From assembly GCA_964434255.1 (NCBI GenBank), contig CAYSUL010000001.1, positions 104,856 to 168,855 on the forward strand: a DNA stretch of 64,000 nt, written 5' to 3'. This document shows positions 18,347 to 63,796 of the stretch, piece after piece. The stretch's first letter is position 1. Each line of letters begins with the position of its first letter. The position numbers and the translations under genes were made by a program. The DNA is from an uncultured Candidatus Saccharibacteria bacterium (lineage in GTDB: Bacteria; Patescibacteriota; Minisyncoccia; Phycocordibacterales; Phycocordibacteraceae). A model generated the notes under the pieces. The model was not told the origin of the DNA and did not search any database. It was given only the letters and a program-made list of their open reading frames with translations.

Positions 18347-19216
18347 TTATACCCCACCCTCGCGGGAAGCGTCTATAAAATCATCCAGGTCACCCGCAAG
18401 GACGGCGTCCGGATTACCGGATTCGTGCCCCGTCTCGTGGTCCTTCACCATCTTATACGGATGCAGGACGTAGGAACGCATCTGGGAGCCCCATTCGTTG
18501 GCAGTGGACGGCGCTATGGAGCGGCCTTTCGCCTCGGCTTCGCGGCGTTCCTCCTCCATACGGAACAGCTTCGCTTGGATGAACTCGAGCGCCTTCTCCC
18601 GGTTGGCGAGCTGGCTCCGCTCGCTCGACACATGGACCGATACGCCGCTCGGGGTGTGGGTAATACGCACCGCGGTCTCCCGCTTATTCACGTTCTGGCC
18701 GCCAGCTCCCCCTGACTTCGCGAACTGGATATCGAGGTCGTCCGACCGGAGCTCCACCTTGTGCTGTGCATCGAGCTTCGGGAGCACCTCGACCAGCGCG
18801 AATGAGGTCTGGCGCTTGTCGTTGGCGTTAAACGGCGAGATACGCACGAGACGATGTACGCCCGCTTCGTTCTTCAGCCTCCCGTATACCCCCTTCCCCG
18901 TTATTTCAAGGAGAAGGTTGCGGAACCCGCCATGATTGTTCTCGTTCGCATGGAGTTCGAGCACGCTCCATCCTTTCGACTTCGCGTATCCCTCGTACAT
19001 ACGGCGGAGCATGGCAGCGAAGTCCTCCGCATCATCGCCACCCGCGCCTGCGAGTATCGCGAGGGTCGCGCTCCCGCCGTCGAGCGAGTCTCCATCCCCT
19101 CCCTCCTTGAGTGATTGGTATTCAGCGACACGGCGCTGCGCTTCGTCTTTATCCGCCCAGAAGTCAGGACTCGCCATGAGCGCCTCTATCTCCTTCATCC
19201 GCTCCTCGGGATTCAT
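18347..19216 (-). CDS. prfB: Peptide chain release factor 2 (short domain-1 form, no programmed frameshift)
   Basis: SPF tripeptide (RISPFNAN) and GGQ (SGGAGGQNVN). 289 aa with domain 1 about 55 aa shorter than E. coli RF2. No upstream CUU-UGA frameshift cassette is present. Confidence 0.85.
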   Translation of the reverse strand: MNPEERMKEIEALMASPDFWADKDEAQRRVAEYQSLKEGGDGDSLDGGSATLAILAGAGGDDAEDFAAMLRRMYEGYAKSKGWSVLELHANENNHGGFRNLLLEITGKGVYGRLKNEAGVHRLVRISPFNANDKRQTSFALVEVLPKLDAQHKVELRSDDLDIQFAKSGGAGGQNVNKRETAVRITHTPSGVSVHVSSERSQLANREKALEFIQAKLFRMEEERREAEAKGRSIAPSTANEWGSQMRSYVLHPYKMVKDHETGHESGNPDAVLAGDLDDFIDASREGGV

Positions 19217-22120: not shown

Positions 22121-22197
22121 TGGTGCCGACGGCAGGGAACGATCCTGCGACCTTAGCTTTATGAGTGCTACGCTCTAACCAACTGAGCTACGTCGGC
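22121..22197 (-). tRNA. tRNA with CAU anticodon (elongator Met or Ile2/lysidine type), atypical A54/U58 T-loop
   Basis: Cloverleaf with acceptor GCCGACG/CGTCGGC, anticodon loop CUCAUAA and T-arm GCAGG-ATCGTTC-CCTGC. CCA is encoded. No initiator features (G1-C72). Confidence 0.7.
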
Positions 22198-22876
22198 AAT
22201 TCTCGATTTGAGCAATGCGCTCTATATAGGCCAATATCTTGTCTCTAATATCTGTACCCTTTGAGACACGCAATGCCAGAACACCATAATACACATCGCG
22301 GTTCTCGTAAATCTTTTTCCCTCTATCTAGGAAGGTGGTGCGTCGGAATTGACTAATCGGAATATCGAGAGCCTTGCTCCAAAACCGTAGAATGTCTGTC
22401 TCGCGGTCGCGATGCGTGTCGCTTATGAATATCCGTGGCATGAAACGAGACTTCTCCACCTCGAGACATTCCATGAACCAACGACTCATGAGTTGAATGA
22501 CCCGTGGGTCTGAATTTATCAGAGCGAGCGACCCAGAGTTCGATTTAACGCCCTCTCCCCAGTACAAGCCTATCCCGATTAGGAACAGCTCCCTATCCGT
22601 AAGATCAGGCAGAATGTTGATAGCTTCTTCCTGCGCGACTTTCAGACGATTCGATCGCTTCATTCTATTCATCTCAGCCCCAATCATCCGTCCGCGATGG
22701 CCTGCCACTATCTGTTTCGCATGAAGTACCTCCTTTTGCTCCGGTGTTAACTCGATATCTCGAAGCCACAAACTGACCGTGCTGGGAGCGATTTTTATCG
22801 CCCGGCCTATTTCCTTAACGCTCATCCCTTTCCGCCTCAGTTCGATAGCCCTTCGTTTCTCCTCTGGTTTAGCCAT
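22175..22876 (-). CDS. HTH domain protein with LAGLIDADG-like (GLYWGEG) motif; putative free-standing homing endonuclease (paralog of 59121..59795)
   Basis: N-terminal HTH (MSVKEIGRAIKIAPSTVSLWL) followed by FLIGIGLYWGEGVKS, resembling the LAGLIDADG block (cf. GLWIGDG). Low local GC. Its 3' end overlaps the first 23 nt of the downstream tRNA. Confidence 0.45.
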   Translation of the reverse strand: MAKPEEKRRAIELRRKGMSVKEIGRAIKIAPSTVSLWLRDIELTPEQKEVLHAKQIVAGHRGRMIGAEMNRMKRSNRLKVAQEEAINILPDLTDRELFLIGIGLYWGEGVKSNSGSLALINSDPRVIQLMSRWFMECLEVEKSRFMPRIFISDTHRDRETDILRFWSKALDIPISQFRRTTFLDRGKKIYENRDVYYGVLALRVSKGTDIRDKILAYIERIAQIENCRRSSVG

Positions 22877-34827: not shown

Positions 34828-34835
34828 GCTTCTTG

Positions 34836-34906
34836 TTGCGGGGGCCGGAATCGAACCGGCGTCTGGAGGTTATGAGCCTCCCGAGGTACCTCTCCTCTAC
34901 CCCGCT
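34836..34906 (-). tRNA. Initiator tRNA-fMet (anticodon CAU)
   Basis: 1:72 mismatch (A1 with A72), A11:U24 in the D-stem and anticodon loop CUCAUAA. The T-arm and acceptor 3' strand are nearly identical to E. coli tRNA-fMet (GGTTCGATTCCGGCCCCCGCAA). Only two G-C pairs at the base of the anticodon stem. Confidence 0.7.
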
Positions 34907-58978: not shown

Positions 58979-59001
58979 AGATTCCCCAAGGGAATGAGGG
59001 A

Positions 59002-59034
59002 CTCAGGCGCTCGCGCCTGAGTCGTTTCCTTTTG
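59002..59034 (+). terminator. Rho-independent terminator (CTCAGGCG-CTCG-CGCCTGAG + TCGTTTCCTTTT)
   Basis: 8-bp G/C stem with a tetraloop and T-rich tail. Confidence 0.5.
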
Positions 59035-59108
59035 TGCGCCCGGCAGGGCACGATCCTGCGACCCCCCGGATATAAGCCGGGTGCTCTGACCAACTGAGCT
59101 ACGGGCGC
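59035..59108 (-). tRNA. tRNA-Ile (anticodon UAU), atypical A54/U58 T-loop
   Basis: Acceptor GCGCCCG/CGGGCGC, anticodon stem CCCGG/CCGGG with loop CUUAUAU. The D-arm and T-arm (GCAGG-ATCGTGC-CCTGC) are nearly identical to the CAU tRNA at 22121..22197. Confidence 0.65.
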
Positions 59109-59120
59109 TCCATCATGGAA

Positions 59121-59795
59121 TCACGGAGGTAAGTTCCGTGCAAATGTATCGCGAATACTTTCGAGGCATGCGTGCACATATTCGGATACATCGCGATTCC
59201 CATAGAGGATATTGCAGGTTCCATGAGTGAACCGTTGCGTGTAGGTAAGTCCGCTTCGGCTCGATGACTTGATGTATGGTTTTCGGAAAGCCGTTCTCGG
59301 CAGATCTAGTACCTCTGACCAATAATTCAATTCGGCTTCCGCATCCATGTCCTGATAAAGATGTATGCACACCTTCAATTTCTCTCTCGGCACGCCGAAC
59401 ATTTCCAGCCATTTGATAAAGAAGATCAATACCGCGGGATCCGTGTTCGATATAGCAGTAAGAGTATTCTGAGTCTTACTCCCTTCACCCCAATATAGAA
59501 ACAGGCCCGCTATGAACATTTCACGTTCGGACAGTGTAGAGACATCTTTCGCTGCGCGTTCATAGACTCCCTCAAGTCGTGTGCGTTTCTTCAGCGCCTT
59601 CGTCTCTCGACACTTCTCAATCCTGCGCTCACTCCATCCACGCAGCTCGTTGATTCGCTCTCGAGAAAGCGGATAGTCCTGCAACCAGATACTTAGTGTC
59701 CCCTTACTTACACCAAGCGCCGCTTTTATCTGGCTGTAGCTCATCTGCTGCATCCGCATTTCAAGCGCTCGCGCCTTTAATTCTCGTTTAGCCAT
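59121..59795 (-). CDS. HTH domain protein with LAGLIDADG-like (GLFLYWGEG) motif; putative homing endonuclease (paralog of 22175..22876)
   Basis: Collinear similarity to the 22175..22876 product (MAKxE..., LSIWLQD, FIAGLFLYWGEGSK, ISNTDP, WSEVLDLP). Low GC. Located 13 nt upstream of tRNA-Ile(UAU). Confidence 0.45.
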   Translation of the reverse strand: MAKRELKARALEMRMQQMSYSQIKAALGVSKGTLSIWLQDYPLSRERINELRGWSERRIEKCRETKALKKRTRLEGVYERAAKDVSTLSEREMFIAGLFLYWGEGSKTQNTLTAISNTDPAVLIFFIKWLEMFGVPREKLKVCIHLYQDMDAEAELNYWSEVLDLPRTAFRKPYIKSSSRSGLTYTQRFTHGTCNILYGNRDVSEYVHACLESIRDTFARNLPP

Positions 59796-59914
59796 AGTAC
59801 TTAGGAGTAGTGCACACAAAGTACTAACTCCTAGTTCAAATATTCCTGGAGAAATAATAGGGGAAAGCTGAAAACCGCCGAGACATATGTCTCGGCGGTT
59901 TTCATGTGAGTTAC

Positions 59915-61888
59915 CTAAATGTCTATCTTCGGCGACTCCTCGTCCTCTTTCGTCTTGGGTGTTATGCCGTTCGCAATGAGGAGCTTCTCGAATTCCTCGC
60001 GTTCGAGCGTCTCCACTTCGACGAGCTTCTCCGCGATGGCGTCGAGTGCCTTGCGATGCTCGGTGAGGACACGCCGCGCGCTTTCTTTCGCCTCTTCGAT
60101 GATACGGGTGACCTCAGCATCTATCGTCGCGGACACGTTCTGCGAGTAGATAGCGTCGCTATGGGCGCGGTCTGCGGCGAACGCGACCGGCCCTATCTTA
60201 TCCGACATGCCGTAGCGGGCGACCATGTCGCGCGCGAGTCCCACGACCACCGCAAGGTCGTTGGATGGTCCTGTCGTGAGGTCATCGAATACCATCTCTT
60301 CCGCGACATAACCGCCGAGCGTTGCGGCAATGTCGTCGAGGAATTCTTTCTTCGACTGCATTCTCCTGTCCTCGAACGGAAGCTTGAGCGTGTAGCCGCC
60401 TGCGCGTCCGCGACTGATGATGGAAATCTTGTGCACTGGGTCAGCGTACGGAAGCACCGACGAGACAAGCGCGTGACCTCCTTCGTGGTATGCGGTGACG
60501 AGCTTCTCCTTCTTCGAGAGAAGGTGGCTCTTTCGTTCGGGCCCGAGCATCACCTTCTCGATGGAGCGGATGAGGTCGTACTGCGTTATCTCCTTGCGGT
60601 TCTCGCGTGCAGCCAGGATTGCGCCCTCGTTCATGAGCGAGTAGAGCTCAGCGCCCGAGAAGCCTGGCGTGCGTTCCGCGATGACTTCAAGGTTCACGTC
60701 AGGACCGAACGGCTTCTTGCGGGAATGCACGGAAAGTATCGCGAGACGGTCCTTGCGATCCGGAAGATCGAGCATGACGCGCCTATCGAAGCGACCAGGA
60801 CGAAGGAGCGCTGGGTCGAGCACATCAGGACGGTTGGTTGCCGCGAGGATGATGACTTTCTCGTTCGGATCGAATCCATCCATCTCGACGAGTATCTGGT
60901 TCAACGTCTGCTCGCGCTCGTCGTTGCCGCCGCCAACACCCGTGCCACGCACGCGACCTACCGCGTCTATCTCATCCACGAAGATGATTGCCGGAGCGAC
61001 CTTCTTCGCCATGTTGAAGAGGTCGCGCACACGTGACGCCCCGACTCCCACGAACATCTCCACGAACTCGGAGCCCGAGATGGAGAAGAACGGTACGCCT
61101 GCCTCGCCCGCAACAGCGCGCGCAAGCATCGTCTTTCCCGTTCCTGGGGCGCCCATGAGAAGAATGCCCTTCGGGATGCGTGCACCTATATCGAGGAACT
61201 TCTTCGGGTTCTTGAGGAAGTCCACGACTTCCATGAGCTCTTCCTTCGCCTCCTTCGCGCCTGCGACGTCTGCGAACAATATGCGCTGCGTCGTATCAGC
61301 CGGGTCTATCATCTTCGCCTTGGACTGACCGAAACTGAACGCTTGCATGCCCGCTCCGCGCACCTGGCGCGTGAGGAACCAGAAGAGGATAGCGAGGAAG
61401 AGGATGGGAAGAAGTATCGGCGCGAGGTTGAAGAACCAATACTTGAAGCCCGACTCCGTCGCGATGGTTATCTGCGTACGAGTGAGCTCCTCTGGAGTGA
61501 CGCCGTATACTGCGAGCGTCTCGGGAAGTCCCTGATCCGGGTCCTTCATCGACTTCTTCTCCGTGCCGTCCGCGTACGTGAGCAGAAGCTCGTTCCCTTC
61601 TATCTTCACGACGGTGAGCGAGCCCGCCTTCACGTCCTGTGCTACCTGCGAGAGCGCTATCTCCTCCTTCGCCTTATCTCCTCCGAACAAAAGGGAGAAG
61701 ATGCTCATTAAGAGAAGGAACACGAGCACCGTCGAAAGGAGGTTGCCCATGAAGCCTGGGGTGCCAGGCGTGAGGAAATTGCGCGGGCCCTTGCCCTTGC
61801 CTGGTTTCTTGCCGCTCCCCTTCTTTGCCGATCCACCAGTCGGTGGAGTATTCGGCGAGGCTTTCTTGTTTGGGGTGATGGATGCCAT
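59915..61888 (-). CDS. ftsH: ATP-dependent zinc metalloprotease FtsH
   Basis: Two N-terminal TM helices, AAA module ([11 protein letters not shown]) and the HEGGH zinc site. 657 aa. Confidence 0.92.
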
Positions 61889-63292: not shown

Positions 63293-63699
63293 GGGGGTGA
63301 CCGGCTTTGACGGTCTGTACTTTGAGAGACGTGCGACGCGATGGAAGATTGCTGACCATCTAAATCCCGCAATCAACCAATACTTGCAAACAAAACTGTT
63401 GCAAGCGTAAAGTCTCCGTACTTCGGTAAGGAAAGCTTTGCGTTCGCTTACGCGTAAAAGCTTCGCGCTTTCGCCTAAGCGACGTCTTTTTCTCTCGGTT
63501 CTCGTAGCGAGGGGAAGGGGCGGAATCTTCTACGGGATCGGCTCGTGCTCTCCTAGGCACCGAGCTTAAACAACAGGATCAGGAAGGAGCGTTTTCGCTA
63601 GCGTTCTTATTCTCCTTCTGAAGCATCAACACTAGCTATGCGTCGTAGATTCGTCCTCAAAGCCAGATTCGGACCGGAGTTCAACTCTCCGCACCTCCA
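63293..63699 (+). ncRNA. ssrA: tmRNA (SsrA)
   Basis: 5' GGGGGUGACCGGCUUUGACGG resembles the tmRNA 5' end. The 3' tRNA-like T-arm GGAGTTCAACTCTCC is followed by acceptor CACCUCC-A-CC, giving the alanine determinant G3-U70. An internal tag ORF appears to end ...FAFAYA-stop. Located after smpB. Confidence 0.7.
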
Positions 63700-63796
63700 C
63701 CTAGTTTCACTAAAGGCCTCGAAAGAGGCCTTTAGTGTTGGCGTGTCTTGATGGATTGGAGGTTCTAATCTTTCGCAGCAACCTCTAAAAATTCCC

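Follow-up and report, generated by a model that had tools for sequence, protein, structure and literature searches.

The decoding of AUA is a textbook case: a single modification, the editing of C34 to lysidine by TilS, determines both which codon a tRNA reads and which amino acid it carries. About 98% of annotated bacterial genomes contain tilS (PMC12514573), a gene regarded as essential and near-universal in bacteria and proposed as an antibiotic target. The published exceptions, in which a tRNA-Ile carries a UAU anticodon, are a small number of species of Mollicutes, Bifidobacterium and Neorickettsia, besides a few sporadic cases. Here we describe a tRNA-Ile(UAU) gene in a 64,000-nucleotide stretch of contig CAYSUL010000001.1 (the window), which very probably encodes a functional minor isoleucine tRNA, of the type tRNA-Ile3(UAU), in a bacterium assigned to the Paceibacteria (Parcubacteria, candidate phyla radiation, CPR), a lineage of ultra-small groundwater bacteria. 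An earlier reading of the same DNA, the original prediction, had called such a tRNA rare in bacteria, and for characterised bacteria the surveys agree: Taniguchi et al. 2013 list 9 species in 3 clades without tilS, besides a few that possess both systems and 371 TAT tDNAs from metagenomes that are unassigned (PMC3575796), tRNADB-CE holds UAU tRNA-Ile from 19 species (PMC4013482), and the tRNAscan-SE 2.0 survey reports 17 genomes of Bifidobacterium, Mycoplasma and Neorickettsia (PMC8450103).

The closest parallels are the tRNA-Ile2(UAU) of Mycoplasma mobile and its counterparts in M. haemofelis and M. suis (PMC3575796), in which UAU and A37 are gene-encoded, as in the window, and AUA is read without lysidine, as we predict here. 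Like the M. mobile gene, the present one is chromosomal and single and appears to be vertically inherited. M. mobile is AT-rich and demonstrably without tilS, whereas the present host is a CPR bacterium with a window GC content of 57% and uses AUA more than AUU; its tRNA differs further from that of M. mobile by a swapped A54/U58 pair in the T loop and by a conserved partner gene. AUA decoding in M. mobile combines an unmodified U34 with an AUG-rejecting ribosome and an isoleucyl-tRNA synthetase (IleRS) with Arg865, while Bifidobacterium and Neorickettsia have a eukaryote-type (type 2) IleRS and no tilS (PMC3575796). In the latter two genera tRNA-Ile3(UAU) replaces Ile2(CAU) and UAU is a clade-wide trait (PMC3575796, PMC8450103), as it seems to be here, but the phylum of the present host is a different one that is not listed in those surveys.

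Other described cases are more distant. In Lactobacillus casei, L. plantarum, Cyanothece PCC 7424 and Ferrimonas balearica tilS and tRNA-Ile(TAT) coexist (PMC3575796), which makes them the model for a redundant decoder, and in Bacillus subtilis a tilS deletion is suppressed by tRNA-Ile1 G34U, a UAU tRNA that rescues the loss of the lysidine system (PMC3919564). These cases are sporadic or experimentally selected, whereas synteny across a broad clade and high AUA usage are observed here. The small genomes of the archaea Nanoarchaeum equitans and Korarchaeum cryptofilum dispense with the C34-modifying TiaS by means of tRNA-Ile(UAU) (PMC8450103); these tRNAs differ from that of the window in belonging to another domain of life with other identity rules. 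Direct reading of AUA by bacterial UAU tRNAs has precedent (PMC3575796, PMC3919564, PMC8450103), so the proposed decoding mechanism is of a known kind; the new details are a further clade of hosts, conservation in synteny, heavy use of AUA in GC-rich DNA, and a gene that accompanies the tRNA. Full-text literature searches found no paper linking CPR or Patescibacteria with tilS, lysidine or tRNA-Ile(UAU).

The tRNA-Ile(UAU) gene and its orthologues

The gene and its immediate neighbours are:
59035..59108, minus strand: tRNA-Ile with gene-encoded UAU anticodon (ARAGORN, Rfam, covariation, identical copies in assemblies L001 and L011)
59121..59795, minus strand: gene for a helix-turn-helix (HTH)/LAGLIDADG-like protein of about 224 amino acids, its stop 12 nt upstream of the co-oriented tRNA
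59915..61888, minus strand: ftsH, the conserved upstream neighbour, with 15 ATA codons
56603..58768, plus strand: recG, the conserved convergent downstream neighbour; its longest open reading frame (ORF), from 56543, holds 20 ATA codons

Of the eight RNA genes (seven tRNAs and one transfer-messenger RNA, tmRNA) that ARAGORN finds in the window, one is a minus-strand tRNA-Ile(tat) at 59034-59108. The Rfam model RF00005 matches 59035-59108 on the same strand over model positions 1-71, that is at full length, with 65.6 bits (E 5e-12) against a gathering score of 29 bits. The UAU-anticodon tRNA with the loop CUUAUAU of the original prediction is real by both measures, its covariance score standing above the tRNA threshold. 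The sequence runs GCGCCCG-UA-GCUC-AGUUGGUCA-GAGC-A-CCCGG-CUUAUAU as far as the end of the anticodon loop and CCGGG-GGGUC-GCAGG-AUCGUGC-CCUGC-CGGGCGC-A after it. The anticodon loop, C32-U33-U34-A35-U36-A37-U38, has 7 nt with U33 and A37; the discriminator is A73 and CCA is not encoded. The minimum-free-energy fold (z-score -1.79) is the cloverleaf itself, with UAU at 34-36 and all stem pairs Watson-Crick, which rules out both a better fold and another triplet at these positions. The identity set of E. coli IleRS, which Nureki et al. are said to have defined in 1994, reportedly comprises A73, C4-G69, U12-A23, C29-G41, A35, U36, t6A37 (N6-threonylcarbamoyladenosine) and A38. The window tRNA carries A73, C4-G69, U12-A23, C29-G41, A35, U36 and A37.

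The same DNA as that of the window is present in an ENA metagenome assembly (L001), and an identical tRNA next to a 99.6% identical HTH protein occurs in L011, a 0.1-µm-filtered Hainich groundwater assembly. For more distant relatives, six orthologues of the HTH protein were looked up and the surrounding DNA was read, which gave eight distinct loci: L012 and L013 from Hainich groundwater; L014; L015 and L016, including the 732-kb scaffold ERZ23486838 CAOS20-1 scaffold_5; L017, Zambryskibacteria GCA_026394775.1; L018; and L019, GCA_038212075.1. In all eight the tRNA-Ile(tat) gene follows the HTH protein gene after 4-45 nt, and convergent recG always lies beyond the pair. Upstream of the pair, ftsH is present in every relative having that flank, the contig of L017 stopping short of it. 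The proteins diverge in step, with identities to those of the relatives of 75-84% for FtsH, 65-90% for RecG and 55-73% for the HTH protein. The fixed locus in 8/8 relatives and this in-step divergence of the flanking proteins indicate that the tRNA and the HTH gene are inherited vertically between ftsH and recG and do not form a recent cassette.

Selection on the tRNA itself is seen in an alignment of seven distinct orthologous tRNA-Ile(UAU). The segment C32-U33-U34-A35-U36-A37 (CUUAUA) is invariant in all of them, while nine stem pairs change on both sides (5/5 in the anticodon stem, three in the T stem and one in the acceptor stem). In the cloverleaf 98.6% of cells are standard-paired, as compared with 34-50% when the partners are slid, and the observed covariation score was reached by 0/500 shuffles. 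The invariant anticodon loop and the compensatory changes therefore point to a gene selected as a tRNA with a UAU anticodon. A metagenome pattern scan with this acceptor stem and T loop, open to either C or T at position 34, yielded eight genes, all of them with T. A T-loop-specific pattern scan of 185,579 GTDB species genomes gave two matches only, both in Candidatus Yanofskybacteria metagenome-assembled genomes (MAGs), the pattern being too narrow to gauge the rarity of UAU tRNAs.

The T loop of the tRNA, AUCGUGC, is unusual in that A54/U58 replace U54/A58; the U54-A58 reverse-Hoogsteen pair, which is thereby broken, is near-universal in T loops. This feature, together with a fold z-score of only -1.79, is what speaks for a decaying or non-functional tRNA copy, with AUA left to a different tRNA encoded elsewhere in the genome. 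We consider such decay very improbable. Indeed, the gene scores 65.6 bits with intact Watson-Crick stems, independent assemblies agree in its sequence, the clade keeps the anticodon loop unchanged, and the T-loop variant is itself retained in diverged orthologues with compensatory T-stem changes; in addition, AUA at 19 per 1000 codons (see below) demands an efficient decoder.

The A54/U58 swap, within the T loop AUCGU(G/U)C, is found in the window tRNA-Ile(UAU), in a CAU tRNA of the window (CAT-a, see below) and in the Yanofskybacteria-type tRNA-Ile(UAU). Swapped T loops in relatives are those of L002 7462-7534, L003 7112-7184 and L004-L010, and normal T loops are found in the syntenic orthologues L012-L019 and in the other five window tRNAs. 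A link between the swap and adjacency to an HTH gene was considered and rejected: in L012-L019 the tRNA adjoins the HTH gene yet its T loop is normal, and the Yanofskybacteria-type tRNAs are swapped without direct adjacency.

The bodies of these tRNAs are variable. In the closest relative, whose RecG is 90% identical, the tRNA-Ile(UAU) (L012 10653-10727, L013 4550-4624) has entirely different anticodon and T stems and two D-stem non-pairs, U12-U23 and C13-A22, two independent assemblies agreeing exactly in this sequence. Compared with the proteins encoded beside it, the tRNA gene thus changes much more rapidly. The core of the window tRNA-Ile(UAU), acceptor stem excluded, shares 88% identity with a tRNA-Val(UAC) of the Yanofskybacteria-like L005 (7889-7962) and is nearer to it than to most orthologous Ile(UAU) genes. 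The two have in common the 5' strand CCCGG of the anticodon stem, with 3' strands one base apart, and the T stem GCAGG/CCUGC, and their anticodons differ only at position 36. The same tRNA-Val(UAC) gene also occurs in L002, L006 and L010, and in these Yanofskybacteria-like contigs it stands in tandem with the Ile(UAU) gene. This likeness may be due to tRNA remoulding or to gene conversion between tRNA genes.

AUA codons and their decoding

Codons were counted in 38 long window ORFs with a high GC content at third codon positions (GC3), 13,557 codons in all. ATA occurs 260 times, which corresponds to 19.2 per 1000 codons and 31% of the Ile codons, and is commoner than ATT (76, 9%), with ATC (496) making up 60%; a looser second ORF set likewise gives 31% for ATA. 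Other A-ending codons with T at the second position are avoided, TTA and CTA accounting for 1% and 3% of the Leu codons. Relatives carrying tRNA-Ile(UAU) have ATA at 7-19 per 1000 codons. For comparison, Muraski et al. 2025 class AUA above 10 per 1000 codons as 'high' and give 4.9 for E. coli (52% GC) and 0.6 for Burkholderia cenocepacia (67% GC) (PMC12514573). ATA is present in all 38 ORFs counted, FtsH and RecG included, so the comparison of AUA frequency between host and cassette genes that the original prediction had proposed yields no contrast.

The meaning of AUA was examined in HMMER alignments of the window FtsH with that of Thermotoga maritima and of the window PyrG with the CTP synthase of Thermus thermophilus. 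The 23 ATA positions of the two proteins correspond in these distant homologues to I (9), V (6), L (3) and others (5) and never to M, thus to Ile, Val or Leu in 18/23 cases; the 45 ATC/ATT positions correspond mainly to I (20), L (10) and V (8), and the 29 ATG positions to M (7), V (7), L (6) and I (3). ATA codes for the invariant Ile of the FtsH Walker B motif DEID and for the I of the FtsH motif 'ILxxH'. Since ATA stands at Ile/Val/Leu positions and never at Met, AUA behaves, by this indirect and comparative evidence, as an isoleucine codon in this host, for which tRNA-Ile(UAU) would be the cognate decoder. A reassignment of AUA, for example to Met as in many mitochondria, with the tRNA serving the new meaning, would fit the unusually high AUA usage and the ability in principle of a U34 tRNA to read both AUA and AUG. 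We reject it as extremely improbable, because the ATA positions of FtsH and PyrG behave like the ATC/ATT positions and the ATG positions differ from them.

A mechanism can be proposed on this basis. The tRNA would probably be transcribed together with the upstream HTH gene or just behind it, because the 12-nt spacer between them is without a promoter-like site. CCA would be added enzymatically after transcription, A37 would be expected to carry t6A, and IleRS would charge the tRNA through the seven elements of its identity set that are present. U34 would then pair Watson-Crick with the A of AUA, allowing direct reading without the lysidine editing of C34. The order ATC > ATA >> ATT would fit Watson-Crick decoders for two of the codons, GAU for AUC and UAU for AUA, with AUU depending on G-U wobble. 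Misreading of AUG could be avoided either by an unmodified U34 combined with a discriminating ribosome or by a modification of U34, both being possible.

We see an about even chance that tRNA-Ile(UAU) is the main or only AUA decoder, TilS and Ile2(CAU) having been lost by analogy with Mycoplasma mobile, Bifidobacterium and Neorickettsia. The suggestion of the original prediction that the tRNA may substitute for a missing tilS system is plausible. In other bacteria tilS-hpt is often found upstream of ftsH. In the window and in the relatives with an ftsH flank tilS is absent from this tilS-hpt-ftsH position, and the DNA upstream of ftsH holds a divergent patatin-like gene and smpB (smpB alone in L019). 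The PP-loop motif SGGxDS was found nowhere in the six frames of 287 kb from this clade; together these negatives cover only a small fraction of a genome.

Several points weigh against a functional tRNA that has taken over from TilS. Position 38, A in the E. coli IleRS set, is U in this tRNA; C29-G41 varies among the seven orthologues, whereas C4-G69 is invariant; and the A54/U58 T loop is atypical and might impair function, a worry that is weakened because the same variant is kept in Yanofskybacteria-type orthologues with compensated T stems. The codon counts come from ORFs picked by length and not from curated genes. Pfam and NCBIfam searches of 48 distinct window ORFs detected neither TilS nor IleRS, and ileS is likewise absent from the loci of the relatives that were read, so that a replacement of TilS is presumptive. 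Both systems coexist in Lactobacillus casei, Cyanothece and Ferrimonas, as mentioned above.

The CAU tRNAs of the window bear on the same question:
22121..22197, minus strand: CAU tRNA 'CAT-a', with acceptor strand GCCGACG, anticodon stem UAGCA/AGCUA with an A31-A39 mismatch, and CCA encoded
34835..34906, minus strand: second CAU tRNA, of initiator type, with A11:U24, a 1:72 mismatch A-A and the pairs G30-C40/G31-C39

CAT-a has the same D arm as tRNA-Ile(UAU) and a near-identical T arm, GCAGGAUCGU[G/U]CCCUGC, reading GCAGG-AUCGUUC-CCUGC in CAT-a and GCAGG-AUCGUGC-CCUGC in tRNA-Ile(UAU), and differs from it in the acceptor and anticodon stems. Its CAU, A37 and A73 are common to Ile2(CAU) and elongator tRNA-Met and do not discriminate between them. 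It has G4-C69, A5-U68 and G29-C41 and is without C4-G69, C5-G68 and C29-G41, the TilS/IleRS determinants of E. coli; TilS determinants vary among species (PMC12514573). The nearest cores to CAT-a are Ile(TAT) and Val(TAC) genes at 70-74% only, which is not decisive for Met versus Ile2. In the initiator tRNA, 1:72 is A-A as against the usual bacterial C-A, and 29-41 is A-U, which leaves the anticodon stem with only two of its three canonical G-C pairs. Because this other CAU tRNA is an initiator and the cell needs an elongator, CAT-a is probably an elongator tRNA-Met; a lysidine-type Ile2(CAU) is a possible but less probable identity. The original prediction had seen CAT-a as a structural match of tRNA-Ile(UAU) that might be the lysidine-type Ile2: the match holds for the D and T arms, while the missing C4-G69, C5-G68 and C29-G41 make Ile2 less likely than Met.

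Some Parcubacteria MAGs in NCBI contain proteins annotated as TilS. A host genome that keeps TilS and a lysidine-type Ile2(CAU), possibly CAT-a, would have in tRNA-Ile(UAU) a second, redundant AUA reader, and we hold this to be a serious possibility, at somewhat under an even chance. The near-universality of tilS and the documented coexistence of both systems (PMC3575796) are in keeping with it, and so is CAT-a itself, which combines the D arm and the rare A54/U58 T arm of the UAU tRNA with a paralogous HTH gene before it. Redundant systems are, however, rarely kept by streamlined genomes. CAT-a has an acceptor stem resembling that of elongator Met besides lacking the determinants, and is needed as elongator barring a third CAU gene; furthermore, the 287 kb contain no SGGxDS motif, and no tilS lies beside ftsH in the relatives with that flank.

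The HTH/LAGLIDADG-like family and the surrounding DNA

The longest ORF of the HTH gene extends to 59819, and its homologues start at the Met of 59795. The protein has an N-terminal HTH_23 domain (Pfam E 2e-6) and a LAGLIDADG-like motif, AGLFLYWGEGSKT...SNTDP; within the motif AGLFLYWGEGxK, E104, G105 and K107 are invariant in 34 sequences. A profile of 34 homologues matches the LAGLIDADG domain of I-DmoI (PDB 2vs7) with an E of 3.8e-4 and places E104/K107 on EG-K. Three fold searches, which bear on the alpha-beta-beta-alpha-beta-beta-alpha fold of LAGLIDADG homing endonucleases, returned no significant match. The protein resembles I-DmoI in its LAGLIDADG-type motif with an aligned acidic residue and Lys, its own seat being at tRNA genes, and it differs from homing endonucleases by its single motif with an N-terminal HTH, the absence of any sign of recent mobility and its stable tRNA partner. 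Among 592 homologues, the sources that name an organism are Pacebacteria, Paceibacterota or Zambryskibacteria, and no functional name is more specific than predicted HTH regulator. It is from these names, and from matches such as the two Yanofskybacteria MAGs above, that the host is assigned to the Paceibacteria/Parcubacteria.

A second member of the family lies in the window:
22175..22876, minus strand: HTH/LAGLIDADG-like paralogue (33% identity, E 2e-27) with HTH_23, its 3' end overlapping the first 23 nt of CAT-a

Both window genes have a GC3 of 0.51-0.53 (0.51 for the gene at 59121-59795), as against about 0.71 for the window. All 22 family copies in the examined sequences (22/22) lie at most 100 nt from a co-oriented tRNA gene, Ile-TAT, Met-CAT, Gly-GCC, Arg-TCG or Val-TAC, and those beside Gly, Arg, Val and Met tRNA genes were not selected for tRNA adjacency. 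Besides the two of the window, copies are located in L002 (392-1045, 3919-4596, 6426-7088) and L010 (1136-1798, 3704-4381, 7255-7908) and also in L004, L006 and L007. Free-standing homing-endonuclease genes occur in phage tRNA clusters (T4 SegB), and LAGLIDADG genes in CPR rRNA introns. The present proteins may represent a family of homing endonucleases, either domesticated or free-standing, that is linked in Paceibacteria to tRNA genes. The family resembles a selfish element, which is what holds true in the cassette idea of the original prediction, yet at the ftsH-recG locus it is an old and stable resident, syntenic and in step with its neighbours, and this stable synteny argues against recent homing.

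The original prediction had set the tRNA on a putatively mobile cassette that could reprogram AUA decoding. The tRNA would then be the cargo of a homing-endonuclease- or transposase-like gene, horizontally acquired and altering or supplementing the decoding of AUA, a scenario that we regard as improbable. Its appeal lies in the upstream gene, with its transposase-like HTH, LAGLIDADG-like motif and low GC3, in the tRNA adjacency of all 22 family copies, one of which forms a paralogous gene-plus-tRNA module at 22.1-22.9 kb, and in the tRNA body, strongly unlike that of L012 despite the 90% identical RecG. However, the module has the same ftsH-recG position in 8/8 relatives (53-72% protein identity) and diverges with its neighbours, it lacks the catalytic domain of an integrase or transposase, the HTH is only weakly similar to transposase N-termini and far below the cut-off, and the LAGLIDADG fold was not confirmed in the fold searches. 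A 15/16-nt direct repeat, TCAGGCGCTCGCGCCT / TCAAGCGCTCGCGCCT at 59003-59018 and 59761-59776, brackets the HTH gene and the tRNA and could be taken for a cassette boundary; it is absent from the six relatives examined and from the paralogous module, and was for this reason treated as chance. AUA is abundant in all housekeeping genes, so that the host depends on its decoding, and since it is heavy in all host genes and stands at Ile-type positions, there is no reprogramming. On a core chromosome, at the same locus in 8/8 relatives, the idea of a mobile cassette that reprograms AUA is not upheld.

The surroundings are indeed those of an ordinary core chromosome, as judged from the gene content of the window. 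It encodes RecG, NAD-dependent DNA ligase (LigA), a class II ribonucleotide reductase and CTP synthase (PyrG) for replication, repair and nucleotide metabolism; GatA, a release factor, SmpB and FtsH for translation and quality control; FtsE/FtsX, a peptidoglycan amidase and a full type IV pilus set (PilB, PilT, PilC, PilM, prepilin peptidase and pilins) for envelope and division; and, in addition, malic enzyme, a Cu-ATPase and a two-component system. Two inverted repeats delimit the HTH gene and the tRNA:
59000..59023, no strand assigned: GC-rich 10-bp hairpin between the tRNA 3' end and the end of recG
59869..59904, no strand assigned: perfect 18+18-nt palindrome, TGAAAACCGCCGAGACAT/ATGTCTCGGCGGTTTTCA, between the ftsH stop codon and the HTH gene

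The hairpin is followed on the plus strand by a T-rich tail; it is terminator-like for convergent recG and may also end the tRNA transcript. The palindrome is followed on the minus strand by the U-rich run UUUUCAGCUUU and probably ends ftsH transcription as a bidirectional intrinsic terminator. With the palindrome terminating ftsH and the hairpin before recG, the HTH gene and the tRNA look like one short separate transcription unit.

Two further features of the window concern the translation apparatus. A tmRNA gene lies beside smpB, at 63293-63701 (plus strand) in the window, 6063-6469 in L012 and 6997-7395 in L019. The window tmRNA encodes a long 23-residue tag, ANKTVASVKSPYFGKESFAFAYA, the core of which, ASVKSPY...FA, is kept in the relatives (ANTSNASVKSPYFGAKDFAFAYA and ANKNTASVKSPYMGNLAFALA). 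The release-factor ORF at 18347-19216 (minus strand, 289 amino acids) matches PCRF only from profile position 95 on, so its N-terminus seems short, which may reflect a mis-called start or a prfB-type frameshift.

Implications for the Paceibacteria

The findings can be combined, tentatively, in one picture: much of the Paceibacteria might have abandoned TilS for tRNA-Ile(UAU), AUA might thereby have risen to a major Ile codon at high GC, and the tRNA might be held in a conserved two-gene module with a domesticated homing-endonuclease-like family. Within this picture the family may drive gene conversion between tRNA genes or may act on the expression of tRNA genes; gene conversion of this kind would explain the shared T arms and the mosaic tRNA bodies.

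To the published UAU exceptions the Paceibacteria would add a large, deep-branching, uncultured clade, which is among the most abundant CPR groups in groundwater. Its UAU tRNA would offer a natural test of how U34 deals with AUG and of how codon usage responds to a Watson-Crick decoder of AUA. It also matters for annotation, and for markers of genome completeness that take TilS or Ile2(CAU) for granted in CPR genomes. Finally, the HTH/LAGLIDADG-like proteins linked to tRNA genes, an uncharacterised family of CPR genomes, merit a study of their own.

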